A stretch of 64,000 nt of DNA from Candidatus Thorarchaeota archaeon (GTDB lineage Archaea; Asgardarchaeota; Thorarchaeia; Thorarchaeales; Thorarchaeaceae). Below the pieces are notes generated by a model that saw nothing but the letters and a program-made list of their open reading frames with translations, had not been told where the DNA came from and did no database searches. The stretch is from the NCBI GenBank assembly GCA_003345545.1, contig PRDH01000019.1, positions 1 through 64,000 on the forward strand. The letters run 5' to 3'. Positions 544 to 15,313 of the stretch are shown in pieces; position 1 is the stretch's first letter, and each line of letters opens with the position of its first letter. The position numbers and the translations under genes were made by a program.

Positions 544-1470
544 TTAGCTACTTGAGGATGCCGCAATCCAGAAGAACAAACCGCCCAAGATCCAAACGAA
601 AAGACCTGCACCTAGTAGAACTCCAAGCGTAGCTCCCATGCCGGATGAGCCAAAATTCACATGCATGTTTGTGAAGCTCTTGAAGCCTCCGACATATTTC
701 GTTTCATAGTCGCAGTGAAATTCCTTGTCAGTAACTGCTCCGCATATCTCACAGACATATCTATTCTGAAAGACTGCTCCGAGAACGCTGTCAACATTGC
801 AGCCTATGAAGCCAGTCAATACAGTCAGAGGTATGAGAAAGTAGACTTGGTCAACTGCTGTGACTGCTGGTACCCAGCCAGGGGCAAAGACTGAGAAGAG
901 AACTGCAATTACTCCAATCGTAAGACCTGCCAGAATGGCAACAGCCTCACCAAGCAAGGAAACTCCGCCAATCGTACCAGTCGGTACCTTCCTTCGAAGA
1001 TTAGTGATCAATCTCGGCTTGCTCCTGCTGAAGACTCCTAATTCGCTAGCTAGGGTATCCGCGGCTGTAGTTGATACTGCTCCGATATAACCACCGAAGA
1101 GAAAGAACGGCCAACCTGCAGCCGCCAAGTCTGGGACGAGACTGGCAAGGTACATAGCAACCGAGAACATCATAGGAATGAGTCCGCTTCCGAAGACGTT
1201 TTTCCATGATCTCTTGCCTTTTCCTTCTTGAGCACAGTTCCTCTGCATCTTTGCCTTGTACTTATATTTAGTAGCAATCCCTGCGCTCAGGAAATAGAAG
1301 AGCACAATTACGAACGCCGAAACGCCACCAGTGTACCAGATGGTGAATCCCACAATGAAGGCACTGATGAGTCCAGAAATATCGACAAAGTGGAGCTTAT
1401 AGGCCAAGGCCCCGAAAGCACCCATCACCAATAGTCCGGAAACGGCCGGATGCGCAAGTATCTCAAACAT
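544..1470 (-). CDS. DUF92/TMEM19-family integral membrane protein
   Basis: Multi-TM protein with motifs RSWKNVFGSG, ADTLASELG, VPTGTIGGVSLLG, DSVLGAVFQ and a CxxC..HC loop. Confidence 0.9.
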   Translation of the reverse strand: MFEILAHPAVSGLLVMGAFGALAYKLHFVDISGLISAFIVGFTIWYTGGVSAFVIVLFYFLSAGIATKYKYKAKMQRNCAQEGKGKRSWKNVFGSGLIPMMFSVAMYLASLVPDLAAAGWPFFLFGGYIGAVSTTAADTLASELGVFSRSKPRLITNLRRKVPTGTIGGVSLLGEAVAILAGLTIGVIAVLFSVFAPGWVPAVTAVDQVYFLIPLTVLTGFIGCNVDSVLGAVFQNRYVCEICGAVTDKEFHCDYETKYVGGFKSFTNMHVNFGSSGMGATLGVLLGAGLFVWILGGLFFWIAASSSS

Positions 1471-1814: not shown

Positions 1815-4800
1815 CTAATAGACTGTGAACTGCTTCTTCACTATGTCTACCGCACGATTTGGAAGCGGACGACCGTGCTGCGAGATGACTGCATCTAGGT
1901 AGTACCCTGACACAACATCGATCGGTGGAGTCAGCCATCTCACAGTCATTGTGTTCTTCTCTCCGCTAGGTAGACGGATTTCAAACTCCTTGACAATCTC
2001 ACGTCTTGACATCACTCTGAGATTGACTCTCAGGTCCTCCAAATCCTCTCTCGCGCTCTCCACATCCACGACAATATCGACTGGAGTGAGTCTAGCAACA
2101 AGACCCGGAATCTCATCACCTGTTTCGCTCTTTATTGAAAAGCCGACCTTGAAGAATGGCTTTTCGATAGCCTTGACCTTAAATCGTTGGCTATTCTCAT
2201 TCGATTGTGTGCCACAAGTTAGGCTCGCCTTCAGGTGTGCCGTACTCATTTCCGCACCGAGAGGTACTCTGAACTGGACTGGAATCATTTTTGCCTTTTC
2301 AGGTTCTAGGTTGATGTTTCTCTCAATCAGGCTGAAGTTACCAGCAATTGATTCAAGGCTGACTGAAAGACTGCAATCTGTTGGTTCTATTGGGCCGCCC
2401 TGGATTTGTATTGTCATCTGAACCATTTGGTCAGGTAGAGTGTAACTGGGAAGCCCGATGAACTCGATCGCCGCAAAACCTGCTGAGGGACCACCAACGA
2501 TGTCTATTGTTGCCGAACGCCTATCCATCTCCATATCTGCATAGCTGAGGATTGCAACAAGCGAAACCGTCTTTGGGTTTGTGGATGACTCCGGAGCTGG
2601 AACTGTGATGGGACCGAAGGCCAATGATAGGTTCTTGCTCTGCTTTACAGGCTGTCGAAGGACCATGTGCTCCTCGCCATCAGGAAAGACGAATGATAAT
2701 GAGAGAACAGCAGGATCTCCCTGCTCCGTGTTCCTCCGGATTCGTAACCATCCTGACACTTTACCTCCGATGTGAGAACGTTGGGGAACTCGAAGTGAGT
2801 CTAGATTGATGCGAGTCGCAACCTCGTCTATGCTGAATCTGTCTGACTCGACCGATGCCATGATACCTCCCCTCTCAATTACACGAATGCGAATTACGCC
2901 AACTCTGTCCGACTGAGTCATTTTCTCCACATGAGGGACTCTCCACTGAAAAGTCGCTGTTGTGCCCATGAACTCCCCGAATTGCAGGCTCTCAATTTCA
3001 GTCGACTTCTCTGATTCTGAATAGAAGTCAACAATCATCGTTGCTGATGTCCCAATCACCTTGCTCCTATCACTTACGACTACACTCCCCGTCACGAATT
3101 CGCCGGGCACGTAGCTGCTTTTCAAATCTGACTCTAGGACGGCTTGCGGCCCCCTTCTCACAAATCCCACGTAGAAGGGCTTTGATGTTCCTTCAGCTAT
3201 TTCCATATTCTCTTCGTTGAGCAAGCGTATCTGGAGAACACATCTCTCAACACCTTCAGCCGCATCAGGTGGAATCATCAGAGGCGGGAGGTGTGAACTC
3301 TCAAGGACTGTGGTTTCTCCTCCCTCAATCTCAAGCATCTCTCTAGTTCCGACAATGACGCGCTCGAGATTGGGGGCAAGTACATTGACTTGACAGCTGA
3401 CGAGTGATTTTGAAGGATAGTTGGTTTCGATCTCTCCGACAAAGAGAACAGGCGTCTTGCCATCTGCAAACTGAGTTGTCGTGCCTGGTTTGATTGATGC
3501 ACTCATCCAATATGTGTTGATGGTGCTAGTAAAACTGATCTGACGACCTGCAAAACCCACATCTGCAATCACGTTATAGGCAGTCGTGTCCTTTCGAGTT
3601 CTGAAGACAACCTGAGAAACATGTATTTCTCCAGCTTCAATGCTGTCGATTGTCAGAACATTACCATCCACAGTATTCCTGTGAGAGTCTTCTATTGAGT
3701 ATTTCACAGTCAGGTTCTCGAGACTTCTACCAGTACTGTTGCGAACGAGGATATTGAATTGTGCGTCTTGCCCCGCGAATGCTCTATCGGCGTCTATGAC
3801 GATCTCAGGTTCAAGGCCCTTCCACCAACACAGCCACGTAGGAAGATGTGGAGTTCCTTCAATCGGATCATAGAGCCAGTTGGTGCAACACTCCCTCGTG
3901 ACCTCTGCCAGACGTTTTAAAAGTGCAACCATATTGAAATCGGACTTTGCATAGACATCAAGCTGAAAGTCTGCCTCAGTTGTCCTCGGGTTTACATACT
4001 CACTTCCAAATATCGAAACAAGCAATGCCTGAATGAATGGATTCTCAATAACCTTGAGGTCGTCCAGCTCATCGCGGATCAGGTAGAGCATCGAGACAAT
4101 TGCATCTCCAATGTATCTGTTCCGTCGTGTTTCGTCAATAATTCCTGAGTCAGACACTTGGTGATTGTAGATTGTAAGGAATTCACCTCCACCCTCTCCC
4201 GGCTTGAATGGACCCCATAGTCCGGCAGCCACTGCGGATGCTCTATTCGCGCTAAGTGATTTTGCGCCAACATCTGGGACTATCTTGCCTTGATTGACCA
4301 TGCGCTTAGCTTTCAGAGCAAGAGCCTGAAGGATTAGTGCGAGTCCCATCCTTCTGGGAATACTCAACTGAGTATCGAACACTCGGAGTTCAATCGTTCC
4401 GTAATCCGTGTAGGGATAACAGTCCACCATCCTTGCATAGCTTCTGTTTACATGCTTAGCAAATGCTTCCTTATCAGCTGCCTTGACGTATGGAATCATT
4501 TCGAATTCGTTTGTTGGACCCATTTGTGTTGTGTTCTTGAAGAGTCTAATCGACCTCTTGCAACGAGGTGCACGGACCACGCCCTTATCATCCATTGTTA
4601 TTTCGTCACTCGTTTTCTTGTTTTCGAATGGCGAGTTCACTGATAGTGCTATGAGATGTGGAATGAAGTTCCGTATCATGTTATAGACAGCGATTTTGGT
4701 GGTTTCATCAACTTCCGGGCTGAGAATGTGATGATGCTCACCAAATGACAGATTGCGCAGGTACTCCTGTGTGGGATTCAGGCCAGTTGATATGAGAATC

Positions 4801-5240
4801 GCTTGGGAGTCCTTGGGTAGTGACTCATATGAGATAGCTATCAGTGTCTGTACCCACCATGCGAGCTCTTCGAGTGTCGTGCATGGAGGCGTTGCGACTT
4901 CGAGAATCCAGGTCAAGCTGACAACGTTCGGGTCATGTCCTAGGAGAGTGTATTCTCTTAGTTGTCCTGCGGGATCCTTATACGTGGCAACTATTCGTGA
5001 ACCTCGTTCTCCTTCTTCTGTCTGCGCCGAATGATCGTATTTCTGTCTGACAGTTTCCACTGATGAAGACCTGATTTTCTTGTCAAGAAGCCCCTTTGCG
5101 CTCGCGACTATCTTGTCGAACAAATCTAAGATGTCTTCTCCACGAATCCAAGTACCATCTTTGCGAATGACTTGGAGCTCGACCTCTATGCCATGAGGAA
5201 AGGGCAACTGCATCTCTGAATCATTTGAGGTCGGGATCAT
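1815..5240 (-). CDS. Glutamate-cysteine ligase family 2 (GCS2/YbdK-like) carboxylate-amine ligase fused to multiple C-terminal Ig/arrestin-like beta-sandwich domains
   Basis: N-terminal ~475 aa carry GIEVELQ, LEVATPP, GEHHH, PHLIALSVNSPF, SIR and YGTIELRVFD. The C-terminal ~660 aa are repeated beta-rich modules. ATG 5240 follows an AGGTGG RBS (track start is GTG 5249). Confidence 0.8.
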   Translation of the reverse strand: MIPTSNDSEMQLPFPHGIEVELQVIRKDGTWIRGEDILDLFDKIVASAKGLLDKKIRSSSVETVRQKYDHSAQTEEGERGSRIVATYKDPAGQLREYTLLGHDPNVVSLTWILEVATPPCTTLEELAWWVQTLIAISYESLPKDSQAILISTGLNPTQEYLRNLSFGEHHHILSPEVDETTKIAVYNMIRNFIPHLIALSVNSPFENKKTSDEITMDDKGVVRAPRCKRSIRLFKNTTQMGPTNEFEMIPYVKAADKEAFAKHVNRSYARMVDCYPYTDYGTIELRVFDTQLSIPRRMGLALILQALALKAKRMVNQGKIVPDVGAKSLSANRASAVAAGLWGPFKPGEGGGEFLTIYNHQVSDSGIIDETRRNRYIGDAIVSMLYLIRDELDDLKVIENPFIQALLVSIFGSEYVNPRTTEADFQLDVYAKSDFNMVALLKRLAEVTRECCTNWLYDPIEGTPHLPTWLCWWKGLEPEIVIDADRAFAGQDAQFNILVRNSTGRSLENLTVKYSIEDSHRNTVDGNVLTIDSIEAGEIHVSQVVFRTRKDTTAYNVIADVGFAGRQISFTSTINTYWMSASIKPGTTTQFADGKTPVLFVGEIETNYPSKSLVSCQVNVLAPNLERVIVGTREMLEIEGGETTVLESSHLPPLMIPPDAAEGVERCVLQIRLLNEENMEIAEGTSKPFYVGFVRRGPQAVLESDLKSSYVPGEFVTGSVVVSDRSKVIGTSATMIVDFYSESEKSTEIESLQFGEFMGTTATFQWRVPHVEKMTQSDRVGVIRIRVIERGGIMASVESDRFSIDEVATRINLDSLRVPQRSHIGGKVSGWLRIRRNTEQGDPAVLSLSFVFPDGEEHMVLRQPVKQSKNLSLAFGPITVPAPESSTNPKTVSLVAILSYADMEMDRRSATIDIVGGPSAGFAAIEFIGLPSYTLPDQMVQMTIQIQGGPIEPTDCSLSVSLESIAGNFSLIERNINLEPEKAKMIPVQFRVPLGAEMSTAHLKASLTCGTQSNENSQRFKVKAIEKPFFKVGFSIKSETGDEIPGLVARLTPVDIVVDVESAREDLEDLRVNLRVMSRREIVKEFEIRLPSGEKNTMTVRWLTPPIDVVSGYYLDAVISQHGRPLPNRAVDIVKKQFTVY

Positions 5241-5249
5241 TCCTACCAC

Positions 5250-5921
5250 CTAGAGGGTCGTGATGGTTTCGAGAATTTCGGCAATCTTTGGTACATTCCC
5301 TGCAAGTGTTGAGGAGAGTGTCATTTCTAGGACCACCACATTTTCAGCCTCCCTTGCCAATTCAGTCAGCTTGTATGTGAGCAATCCTCCCCCGAATTCA
5401 CCATCATCATCAAGCACTTGGAGGTTCAGCTCTCTGAGCTTCTCCTTGAAAGTCGATATCTCTCTCGGACTACCATGTTTGTATCTTGTTCCTAGGATTA
5501 CTGCTCTGTTGCTATCTATGACGGTAGGTAATGGCGACCACCTCAGATTGATTATTAGTTGGGATGTCTTGAGTTTGAGTTGTGCTCTGATGATTCTCAT
5601 GATGGAATCACACGTAGCCTGTGATTCGCTTCGGTCTGAGCCTTTTATGATGACTGGCAGTCTGAATCCTCTTCCTCTGAGGCTTTCAAACGCGTCGTGA
5701 ATTGGGTCTCCCTTGATGTCGGCGGTCAACGCACATACAATGCCAGTCGTTGAACCTTGGACGATGAGGACAGTCGTAGAGAAGTCATCCACTCGCAGGT
5801 TGCTTTCAATGGATTCCAAACTAGTGTGGAGATTGGATAGTCGCTGCAAGAGACTCCCAAGAATCTGCTCTGCTCTTTCTAGTTCTTGGAGAAGGACTGC
5901 TCCTTCACTAGCACTGGTCAT
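5250..5921 (-). CDS. Coiled-coil plus degenerate N-formylglutamate amidohydrolase (FGase)-like protein
   Basis: C-terminal half VILGTRY..GEFGGGLLT..VVVLEMTLS resembles the FGase pattern DIVLGTR..YxGGxIT..ALQIEI. The DxHS metal site appears replaced by NLRW. Its stop lies 9 nt before the ligase ATG. Confidence 0.45.
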   Translation of the reverse strand: MTSASEGAVLLQELERAEQILGSLLQRLSNLHTSLESIESNLRVDDFSTTVLIVQGSTTGIVCALTADIKGDPIHDAFESLRGRGFRLPVIIKGSDRSESQATCDSIMRIIRAQLKLKTSQLIINLRWSPLPTVIDSNRAVILGTRYKHGSPREISTFKEKLRELNLQVLDDDGEFGGGLLTYKLTELAREAENVVVLEMTLSSTLAGNVPKIAEILETITTL

Positions 5922-6014: not shown

Positions 6015-6452
6015 CTAGGCATCTGCAATCAAACTCATCAACTCATCAATCTTTGCCCTAAGCTCCTTCAGACGATACCAAGTTGATTCTCGCCCACTTT
6101 GGTCTGCAAGTTTTCTCACAATGATATTGTAATCCACCCCAGCAAGATCACCCAACAATACGAGCGCACTCTTTGACTTGAAGTGAGACTCATTCACTCT
6201 ACCGTTTCTGAACCTAGTAATAAGAGGCTCAAGTGCTCGTTCTGCTGAATCAATCTCTATCAATGCACCGCGGTAGCTGCCCTTTGGATCCTTGATGGCA
6301 TACCCTCCGACCAATGGAGTCATTCCCATACCTAGTGAACCTTTCCCAATATCATCAAGTGTATCCATAGCATTCTGGAAGAACTGATCCCCGTCCCCTA
6401 GACACTTCTTGATTGCCCTCAAGATTCGAGGTCGTTCGATAGAGTCAATCAT
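6015..6452 (-). CDS. Hypothetical alpha-helical protein
   Basis: 145-aa ORF with an AAGGTGA RBS, co-oriented upstream of the ligase pair. Confidence 0.65.
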   Translation of the reverse strand: MIDSIERPRILRAIKKCLGDGDQFFQNAMDTLDDIGKGSLGMGMTPLVGGYAIKDPKGSYRGALIEIDSAERALEPLITRFRNGRVNESHFKSKSALVLLGDLAGVDYNIIVRKLADQSGRESTWYRLKELRAKIDELMSLIADA

Positions 6453-6477
6453 GAAATCACCTTAGTGAGAAGTGCAG

Positions 6478-6518
6478 AAAAAGGAAGTGGATACGGGTGC
6501 TTCAAGGGTCACACCCGT
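6478..6518 (-). terminator. Hairpin plus T-tract downstream of oppF
   Basis: ACGGGTG (6493-6499) / CACCCGT (6512-6518) inverted repeat followed on the minus strand by CTTCCTTTTT. Confidence 0.55.
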
Positions 6519-6528
6519 GGTTCGGATT

Positions 6529-14431: not shown

Positions 14432-15313
14432 ATGAGAGTGATGAATATCAACCGATCACGGCTGACGATACTAGTTGTTTCAGCACTTCCTTTGGCGATT
14501 GGCTCAGTCTTGGCGATTCTTGTTCTCGACGCTGCCACAATAGGGGACATACTGCTCATCAACACGCGACCAGTTACAATAGATGAACTTGTGATTCAGA
14601 CTGGAGTATCTGTTGGCCTTGGAACATTGATTGTCTTTTCATTATTCTATGCTATTGAGCGACAGGGACCTGGTGCAAGGAGAGCATTTGTAGCTCTTGT
14701 AGTTTCACCAATCTTGACTGCTGCATTTTTTCTCTTGGGGCAATCGCTGCTATTCGTCCTCTTCAGAGGAACATCAACCTCCATAATTCCGAGTATCCTC
14801 TCCTTTGCCTCTCTTGGTGTTTTGCTCATGTCATTCGTATTCATTATGATAGATTCCGTTCCACCAGTGATGAGGAACGTCTTCGTAGCGTTCTACGCGA
14901 GTGTCTTTGGGACATTTCTAGGAGTAATGTCGATAACGCCAAGCATGTTTGTCTTGGTTGTTGCGGTTGTCTTGGAAGACTTCCTTCTTACTCGCCATTC
15001 TCCTGCAGCCCACGCTGCAGCATTGACAGATACACCGGGAGATGATCCTTTTGACTACACAAGAATACAGACCAAGAGGGTCGCTGTCGGAGCTGGCGAT
15101 TTCATTGCCTTCTCACTTATCGCGGCTCACTCTTTCATCTTCTTTCCAATCTATGTCTGGGCTATGTCAGTCGTGCTGGCTCTCGTAGGCATCGCAATCA
15201 ATGCAGCAGTTCTGGCCGAGGAGGACAAGATTCTCCCGGGGATTCCACTTCCAGCAATCCTCTCCCTCTTCCCATGGATTGCCCACATTGTGAGCTACAC
15301 TCTCCTCATTTGA
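14432..15313 (+). CDS. Presenilin/signal-peptide-peptidase-like GxGD intramembrane aspartyl protease
   Basis: About 9 TM helices. First catalytic Asp in VVLED, GAGD motif, and PAL-equivalent LPGIP. Confidence 0.75.
   Translation: MRVMNINRSRLTILVVSALPLAIGSVLAILVLDAATIGDILLINTRPVTIDELVIQTGVSVGLGTLIVFSLFYAIERQGPGARRAFVALVVSPILTAAFFLLGQSLLFVLFRGTSTSIIPSILSFASLGVLLMSFVFIMIDSVPPVMRNVFVAFYASVFGTFLGVMSITPSMFVLVVAVVLEDFLLTRHSPAAHAAALTDTPGDDPFDYTRIQTKRVAVGAGDFIAFSLIAAHSFIFFPIYVWAMSVVLALVGIAINAAVLAEEDKILPGIPLPAILSLFPWIAHIVSYTLLI

Follow-up and report, generated by a model that had tools for sequence, protein, structure and literature searches.

We analysed a 64,000-nt window of a Candidatus Thorarchaeota genome (contig PRDH01000019.1, positions 1 to 64,000; assembly GCA_003345545.1) and found a gene coding for a protein in which an apparently active carboxylate-amine ligase domain with a glutamine synthetase (GS) fold is followed by six predicted immunoglobulin (Ig)-like β-sandwiches. 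Across the Asgard archaea this ligase shares its distribution with a putative metal-dependent hydrolase of the Amidohydro_2 family, which in several loci is encoded next to a vWA-domain protein. Tentatively, and with slightly less than even confidence, we favour the view that the ligase and hydrolase set marks a protein or peptide with a removable amide or isopeptide bond and does not serve thiol metabolism by producing γ-Glu-Cys.

A single open frame spans positions 1815-5249 on the minus strand. The ATG at 5240 is the likely start of a 1141-aa product because the homologues begin at the same place; an alternative GTG start lies at 5249. This ATG is located 9 nt past the TAG of the upstream gene and is preceded by GGTGGTAGGA. 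A first-pass annotation, made by a model from the letters of this DNA, had claimed that the protein lacks a signal peptide and transmembrane helices, and both statements held: the N-terminus is hydrophilic and the maximum 19-residue Kyte-Doolittle mean is 1.37. The protein appears cytoplasmic, and its gene is single-copy.

The ligase domain, which ends in a conserved Cys/Trp-rich linker, carries the motif set GhExE, E, HxH, NSP, SxR and ExR..D.Q, located (P0001 numbering) at GIEVE 20, LEVAT 116, GEHHH 170, NSPF 205, SIRL 233 and IELRVFD 286. The GhExE signature defines the carboxylate-amine ligase superfamily (PMC2588565). Alignment of 38 ligase domains drawn from very different architectures showed GhExE, E114, H169/H171, N202-S203-P204, R232, E284/R286, D289 and Q291 to be invariant or at least 90% conserved, confirming the GS-fold motifs that had been read in the N-terminal domain at first pass. 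The Pfam GCS2 model scored 24.6 bits (cut-off 21) over 45 residues only, TIGR02050 scored 58.4 bits (cut-off 176.4), and the equivalog models of YbdK and the glutamate-cysteine ligases (GCL) scored 14-47 bits against cut-offs of 332-437; all NCBIfam matches were to YbdK/GCL models. A sequence search of the PDB returned YbdK at E ~0.005, with an alignment to 1r8g/1tt4 spanning the same motifs. By these comparisons the domain is a divergent sister clade of GCS2/YbdK and is no equivalog of its members.

The AlphaFold2 model of residues 1-483, built from the 38 diverse domains, had a predicted local distance difference test score (pLDDT) of 92.7 and a predicted template modelling score (pTM) of 0.93. 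VIA-align superimposed it best on YbdK 1r8g/1tt4 (Z 33.3, 330 residues, root-mean-square deviation (rmsd) 2.9, 22% identity), followed by plant GCL (Z 26.6), Dop (20.7), PafA (19.7), other GCLs (17-19) and GS (~16). Foldseek matched the model to YbdK at E 2e-16, with template modelling (TM) scores by target of 0.76-0.78. The fold match to YbdK and the conservation of the catalytic residues suggest that the domain is catalytically competent and apparently active, in agreement with the YbdK/GCS2-like identity originally proposed for it.

The remainder of the protein was modelled as an array of separate sandwiches. AlphaFold2 prediction for residues 478-1144 from a 44-sequence alignment gave a pLDDT of 87 and a pTM of 0.40; in this model the domains are well formed and their mutual arrangement is not fixed. 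DSSP assigned strands only, organised in six 7-stranded units of ~100-115 residues (D1 to D6; Table 1). The model thus bore out the β-sandwich tail of the first-pass annotation while fixing its count of five to six modules at six, and a ~475-aa ligase followed by six sandwiches is indeed, as that annotation held, an atypical architecture for the YbdK family. The annotation had also described a 'Y/F-x-x-G-[EQ]...' pattern in several modules: the three strings quoted for it were located at residues 490, 712 and 825 and fall on the second strand of their respective domains (D1, D3 and D4), but the regular expression itself matches only once. Its 'arrestin-like' label was not sustained, since no arrestin was found among the listed Foldseek and VIA-align matches of the tail, which was searched as multi-domain models.

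D3, D4 and D5 are mutually homologous (hhalign probability 82-93%), and the other sandwich pairs match weakly; in the D1 region, residues 485-563 gave sub-threshold matches to the CARDB, MG2 and FxLYD profiles. The top Foldseek matches of the whole tail were the macroglobulin arrays of C3/C4/C5, A2M, A2ML1, CD109, TEP1 and ECAM (E 6e-20 to 1e-15), and ciliary central-pair proteins and LILR Ig arrays were also returned. In VIA-align the C-terminal barrel pair of transglutaminases and factor XIII ranked first for D1-D2 (Z 13-14, ~197 residues), and D3-D6 best fitted protein 4.2 and the A2ML1 macroglobulin arrays (Z ~12); at the level of the model, all of these are likenesses of a common fold only. 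Over the full-length family the tail (660 aa) keeps a constant length and a mean column identity of 46%. Within Thorarchaeota, mean column conservation was 0.80 for the ligase domain and 0.47-0.66 for the tail domains, indicating a tail that is constrained, but less so than the ligase. An exhaustive phmmer search found no tail-only relatives beyond fragments of the same family.

A word-indexed protein search returned 174 proteins; the best 120, which we considered, were mostly 1136-1153 aa long and 50-92% identical to the query, the rest being truncated or partial records. The named homologues among these 120 were nearly all from Thorarchaeota, with a few from Sifarchaeia, Promethearchaeota and Lokiarchaeota, and databases call them 'glutamate-cysteine ligase family protein' or 'hypothetical'. 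The exhaustive phmmer search yielded no more than 152 representatives. Odinarchaeota and Asgardarchaeia have full-length co-linear forms at ~30% identity, Jordarchaeales and Promethearchaeota have forms of 1230-1410 aa, and Heimdallarchaeota and others have forms of ~480-610 aa. There are also giants of 2200-3800 aa with the ligase domain near the C-terminus, a single vWA fusion (P0176) and one match labelled Thermoplasmatota. The giants P0141, P0147, P0152 and P0199 are metagenomic proteins, and P0152 combines a helix-hairpin-helix motif with ~1500 aa of coiled-coil-like sequence, as judged by a crude composition profile. The ~460-aa ligase domain forms its own, mainly Asgard clade within the GCS2/YbdK branch of the GS fold. 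The first-pass annotation had raised the prospect of the fusion being absent from related genomes; it is instead genuine, recurring at constant length in more than 100 Thorarchaeota clusters and in other Asgard classes, which rules out an assembly artefact as its source.

To map this clade we searched 400 genomes of the phylum with the ligase-domain profile (E<=1e-20) and obtained matches in 253. The ligase was present in 74/85 genomes of the window's own family (f1), always in frames of ~1140-1170 aa, and in 115/135 genomes of family f22, as frames of ~555-590 aa; it was twofold in families f15 and f16, and the profile had no match in f8 (0/31), f10 (0/12) or f14 (0/19). Several short-form matches in f21/f22 (e.g. 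G133, G158, G159, G139 and G164) contain an in-frame TAG or TAA near the C-terminal end, probably reflecting read-through into an in-frame neighbour beyond the gene end.

A survey of the hydrolase orthologues in the same 400 genomes (E<=1e-30) reproduced the ligase distribution family by family. Both genes were found in 74/85 genomes of f1, both were absent from f8 (0/31), f10 (0/12) and f14 (0/19), both were doubled in f15 and f16, and both had been lost from genera g7, g8 and g15 of the window's own family, whose genomes are 91-99% complete. This co-occurrence is strong and is reported descriptively, with no statistical test. The hydrolase retains the HxH, H, H, D metal ligands of the amidohydrolase superfamily; a PDB sequence search with it returned nothing at E<=0.1, and an ESM-Atlas look-up returned Amidohydro_2 clusters only.

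Gene order linked the hydrolase to both the ligase and vWA proteins. On one strand of the Heimdall locus, successive genes code for a vWA protein (447 aa), a protein of 399 aa, the ligase (544 aa) and the Amidohydro_2 hydrolase (492 aa); in the Jord locus the ligase is followed by convergent CDC48_N-vWA (442 aa) and Amidohydro_2 (470 aa) genes; and the Odin locus has a vWA gene (427 aa) convergent with the ligase. Ligase and hydrolase are typically adjacent on the same strand in f22. In two other Thorarchaeota a single contig carries both genes at a distance of 8-10 kb, and in many further Thorarchaeota they are spaced by 9-12 kb. In the genome under study, Amidohydro_2 (501 aa) lies on contig C41, adjoining a vWA gene (420 aa) with further vWA genes beside it: in the region C41:14900-24400 (L016:2898-12375) the hydrolase gene is surrounded by vWA genes of 398, 390 and 420 aa and by a gene of 890 aa whose vWA-like match is weak. 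The end of C41 (Rce1-like, NfeD-like and Band_7-like genes) probably abuts the start of the window's contig, C19, because elsewhere the order ligase, DUF92, Band_7, NfeD, Rce1-like, HEAT is syntenic. The Jord and Heimdall loci also have FtsZ/tubulin genes at a distance of 4-5 kb from the ligase (L009:1004-2050 and L011:11611-12915). A link to FtsZ was dropped as probably coincidental, the FtsZ genes of the genome under study being on other contigs (C27 and C81).

Table 1. Features of the ligase gene and of its immediate neighbours in the window (residues in P0001 numbering)
Feature	Window coordinates	Strand	Residues	Basis or remark
Whole gene: 1141-aa ligase + six-sandwich protein	1815..5240	minus		stop codon 1815-1817; full-length homologues
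N-terminal GS-fold carboxylate-amine ligase domain, ~475 aa	3819..5240	minus		motifs, profiles, model
Predicted β-sandwich D1	3510..3818	minus	478-580	model; fold matches
Predicted β-sandwich D2	3162..3506	minus	582-696	model; fold matches
Predicted β-sandwich D3	2829..3146	minus	702-807	model; profile comparison
Predicted β-sandwich D4, best conserved of the tail	2499..2810	minus	814-917	model; profile comparison
Predicted β-sandwich D5	2175..2474	minus	926-1025	model; profile comparison
Predicted β-sandwich D6, conserved KQFTVY C-terminus	1818..2153	minus	1033-1144	model; homologues
Upstream 223-aa gene, abuts ligase	5250..5921 (ATG 5921)	minus		N-terminal coiled coil + C-terminal FGase/γ-PGA-hydrolase-like domain
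145-aa helical protein, no known family	6015..6452	minus		conserved upstream neighbour in Thorarchaeota only
DUF92 (TMEM19-like) membrane protein	544..1470	minus		conserved downstream neighbour past 344-nt gap

The minus-strand order in the window is OppD, OppF, a terminator-like hairpin, the 145-aa gene, the 223-aa gene, the ligase, the gap and DUF92. The same order recurs in Thorarchaeota loci whose ligases are 52-57% identical, with the 223-aa gene missing in one of them. The hairpin, located between oppF and the 145-aa gene (6453-6528, minus strand), reads CACGGGTG...CACCCGT followed by a T-rich run, and its position after oppF suggests a separate transcription unit made up of the 145-aa gene, the 223-aa gene and the ligase. 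The DUF92 gene probably has its own promoter. Elsewhere in the window, the 293-aa open reading frame after the Opp substrate-binding gene (14432-15313, plus strand) gave a weak Presenilin match (E 0.003) over its C-terminal 70 residues and may code for a presenilin/signal peptide peptidase-like membrane protease.

The 223-aa protein belongs to a family of about 50 clusters. In Odin, Asgardarchaeia and a sister family it has homologues of 224-235 aa whose genes adjoin or overlap the start of the ligase gene. In an ESM-Atlas model its C-terminal domain resembled N-formylglutamate amidohydrolase (FGase), poly-γ-glutamate (γ-PGA) hydrolase, pyroglutamyl peptidase and PAC2, with TM scores of 0.5-0.6 that serve as a lead only. 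Neither a His nor a Glu ligand is conserved among the family members, so the 223-aa partner is probably not a hydrolase. Complex prediction for ligase residues 4-700 with this partner gave an ipSAE (interaction prediction score from aligned errors) of 0.01 against a mark of 0.32, which is evidence neither way. We rejected kinship of the 223-aa protein with the products of the genes that lie upstream of the ligase in the Heimdall locus (399 aa), the Jord locus (501 aa) and the P0140 locus (343 aa), since hhalign of the 223-aa family against them found no similarity. The 851-aa divergent gene of the Odin locus had no match in the genome under study.

A further neighbour is a protein of 770-805 aa that combines a coiled coil and a CarboxypepD_reg sandwich with an EAP30 domain of the ESCRT-II Vps22/36 type (E 3e-19 at best) at its C-terminus. 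Its gene is the second one upstream of the ligase gene in Odin, Asgardarchaeia and the sister family and adjoins the ligase in a fourth lineage sampled, G001. In the genome under study its 784-aa orthologue (C19:65018-67321, plus strand; L006:1477-3831) shares the contig of the ligase at a distance of ~60 kb, just beyond the window, and differs from the canonical ESCRT-II gene of ~275 aa, which is located on C44. The 259-aa gene that follows this orthologue was rejected as a paralogue of the 223-aa partner, being YdjM-like. When the phyletic distribution of the long EAP30 protein was tested, canonical ESCRT-II homologues of ~250 aa swamped the result, and full-length matches were seen only in f1 and f3; ligase and EAP30 are thus linked by gene adjacency only.

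In the reading that we favour, the ligase domain would phosphorylate a carboxylate, most likely the γ-carboxylate of glutamate given the established chemistry of the fold, and the acyl group would then pass from the acyl phosphate to an amine. The six rigid Ig-like sandwiches would be non-catalytic; partners or a macromolecular substrate would be held by them as by an arm or a scaffold. The Amidohydro_2 metal hydrolase is a candidate eraser that would cleave the amide bond made by the ligase, the CDC48_N/vWA protein is a candidate adaptor or target, and the operon of the Thor/Odin type would add the 223-aa partner as a coiled-coil pseudo-amidohydrolase. We infer a protein or peptide substrate because of the sandwich arm and the accompanying vWA, CDC48_N, coiled-coil and EAP30 proteins. 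The fusions of the ligase clade to giants and to vWA, its link to the pair of hydrolase and vWA protein and its link to EAP30 favour a macromolecular setting. The first-pass annotation had read the Ig scaffold as a hint of a macromolecular substrate or of self-assembly, and its interpretation is supported in part. The most specific version, an Asgard system of reversible protein modification through an ATP-driven amide or isopeptide bond of the γ-glutamyl type, with the ligase as writer, the hydrolase as eraser, the CDC48_N/vWA protein as adaptor or target and coupling to EAP30 in several lineages, we consider rather doubtful.

Several findings weigh against a protein or peptide substrate, and part of them speak for an enzyme of small-molecule metabolism. 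We saw no Pup-like small protein in the inspected loci whose C-terminal Gln or Glu is conserved; the small neighbour proteins there end in ...IADA, ...VADH or ...VAEN and others in ...ITTL or variably; proteasome genes were likewise absent from the inspected neighbourhoods. In Thorarchaeota the hydrolase and vWA pair lies outside the ligase operon, the long EAP30 protein is present in one genus lacking the ligase (G324), and related genomes are not independent, so that their co-occurrence is not independent evidence. The ligase is also the sole GCS2-like gene in the genome and could simply be the γ-Glu-Cys ligase of the cell; a GSH-S_ATP search matched RimK/LysX-like ATP-grasp genes and was uninformative on glutathione. 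The nearest relatives that have been characterised, YbdK and haloarchaeal GshA, use free amino acids as substrates, and Amidohydro_2 enzymes mostly process small molecules. It is possible, if somewhat unlikely in our judgement, that the enzyme makes γ-Glu-Cys or another free γ-glutamyl or acyl amide (for example of a polyamine or an amino acid), with the hydrolase in the same pathway and the tail serving oligomerisation, stability or localisation. Such a role would fit the YbdK and glutamate-cysteine ligases as nearest solved structures, the exclusively YbdK/GCL matches in NCBIfam, the many short clade members (~480-590 aa) without the six-sandwich tail and the adjoining Opp peptide transporter of Thorarchaeota. 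It fits less well with scores far under all YbdK/GCL subfamily and equivalog cut-offs (58 bits versus 176-437), with the repeated fusion of the clade to giants (at least one of them coiled-coil-rich by composition), vWA and Ig arrays, and with the linked vWA, CDC48_N and EAP30 domains, which are protein-interaction modules; a tail of such length and conservation would moreover be costly for a metabolic enzyme.

Improbable in our estimate is a structural or assembly protein, in which the arm would drive a cytoplasmic scaffold or lattice and the ligase would be regulatory or would cross-link the protein to itself, as a transglutaminase does but driven by ATP. The fit of D1-D2 to the transglutaminase and factor XIII barrels and of D3-D6 to the protein 4.2 and A2ML1 arrays is in keeping with this, as are weak Transglut_C matches in relatives, the giants rich in coiled-coil-like sequence and the oligomeric state of many GS-fold enzymes (PMC2588565). 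However, no evidence of oligomerisation was obtained, the β-sandwich matches are generic (rmsd 7-12 Å over two domains), the pTM of the tail speaks against fixed inter-domain packing, and the strong conservation of the catalytic residues argues for a true enzyme. The CARDB/MG-type sandwiches, of which D1 gave sub-threshold matches, are typical of archaeal surface proteins and might suggest a secreted or adhesin-like protein. We regard this as very improbable, since signal peptide, transmembrane segment and anchor are all lacking, an ATP-dependent ligase domain needs cytoplasmic ATP, and every homologue begins directly with the ligase domain.

To our knowledge, pupylation is the sole known bacterial ubiquitin-like tagging system, and it arose from GS-fold ligases. 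The clade described here is a second GS-fold lineage, mainly Asgard and present in about two-thirds of the genomes, that is fused to protein-interaction arrays and co-inherited with a hydrolase and vWA proteins. This makes the ligase set a concrete candidate for a new system that modifies or cross-links through amide bonds, in those prokaryotes that stand nearest to the eukaryotes; if the protein-level reading is true, it would be an archaeal analogue of pupylation, of transglutaminase cross-linking or of tubulin glutamylation. Even with a small-molecule product it would represent an unannotated, widely conserved Asgard module. Our searches of the Asgard literature on GCS2, carboxylate-amine ligases and PafA/amidohydrolase turned up nothing on the ligase clade or the gene set.

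Among known systems, YbdK/GCS2 (PF04107, TIGR02050; E. coli YbdK 1r8g, Salmonella 1tt4; haloarchaeal GshA) has the GS-fold core and the GhExE, E, H, R and ExR motifs in common with the Asgard ligase. Those enzymes are single-domain proteins of ~350-400 aa, whereas the Asgard catalytic domain exceeds theirs by ~100 aa, contains an insert at ~35-110, bears a helical extension at its C-terminus and is continued by the six-sandwich tail; it also falls below all curated subfamily and equivalog cut-offs, forms its own clade and lies in another gene neighbourhood. The macroglobulin proteins (α-2-macroglobulin, complement C3-C5, CD109 and TEP) likewise contain strings of 7-stranded sandwiches of ~100-110 aa, but the Asgard protein has no bait region, CUB domain or secretion signal, and neither a CGEQ motif (by motif search) nor a helical thioester domain (the tail model being all-β) was found in it. 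Transglutaminases, factor XIII and protein 4.2 (PF00927) also place tandem Ig-like barrels on an enzyme making γ-glutamyl amide bonds, and relatives of the ligase match Transglut_C weakly. Here the predicted chemistry is ATP-driven instead of a transamidation, the sandwiches are six and not two, and the papain-like Cys-His-Asp core is lacking, with no Transglut_core match at E<=1; a common fold is all that is shared.

PafA and Dop belong to the same superfamily as the Asgard ligase and match its fold (Z 19.7-20.7), and PafA is thought to be derived from GCS2 (PMC2588565). Each set pairs a ligase with an amide-cleaving enzyme, a candidate one in the Asgard case. The Asgard ligase is structurally nearer to YbdK (33.3) and plant GCL (26.6) than to PafA and Dop, and its candidate eraser is an unrelated TIM-barrel Amidohydro_2 protein, in contrast to Dop, which is a paralogue of the ligase. 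What is new is thus the architecture and the gene set of a GS-fold amide ligase, for which the nearest conceptual precedent is the origin of PafA from GCS2 (PMC2588565).

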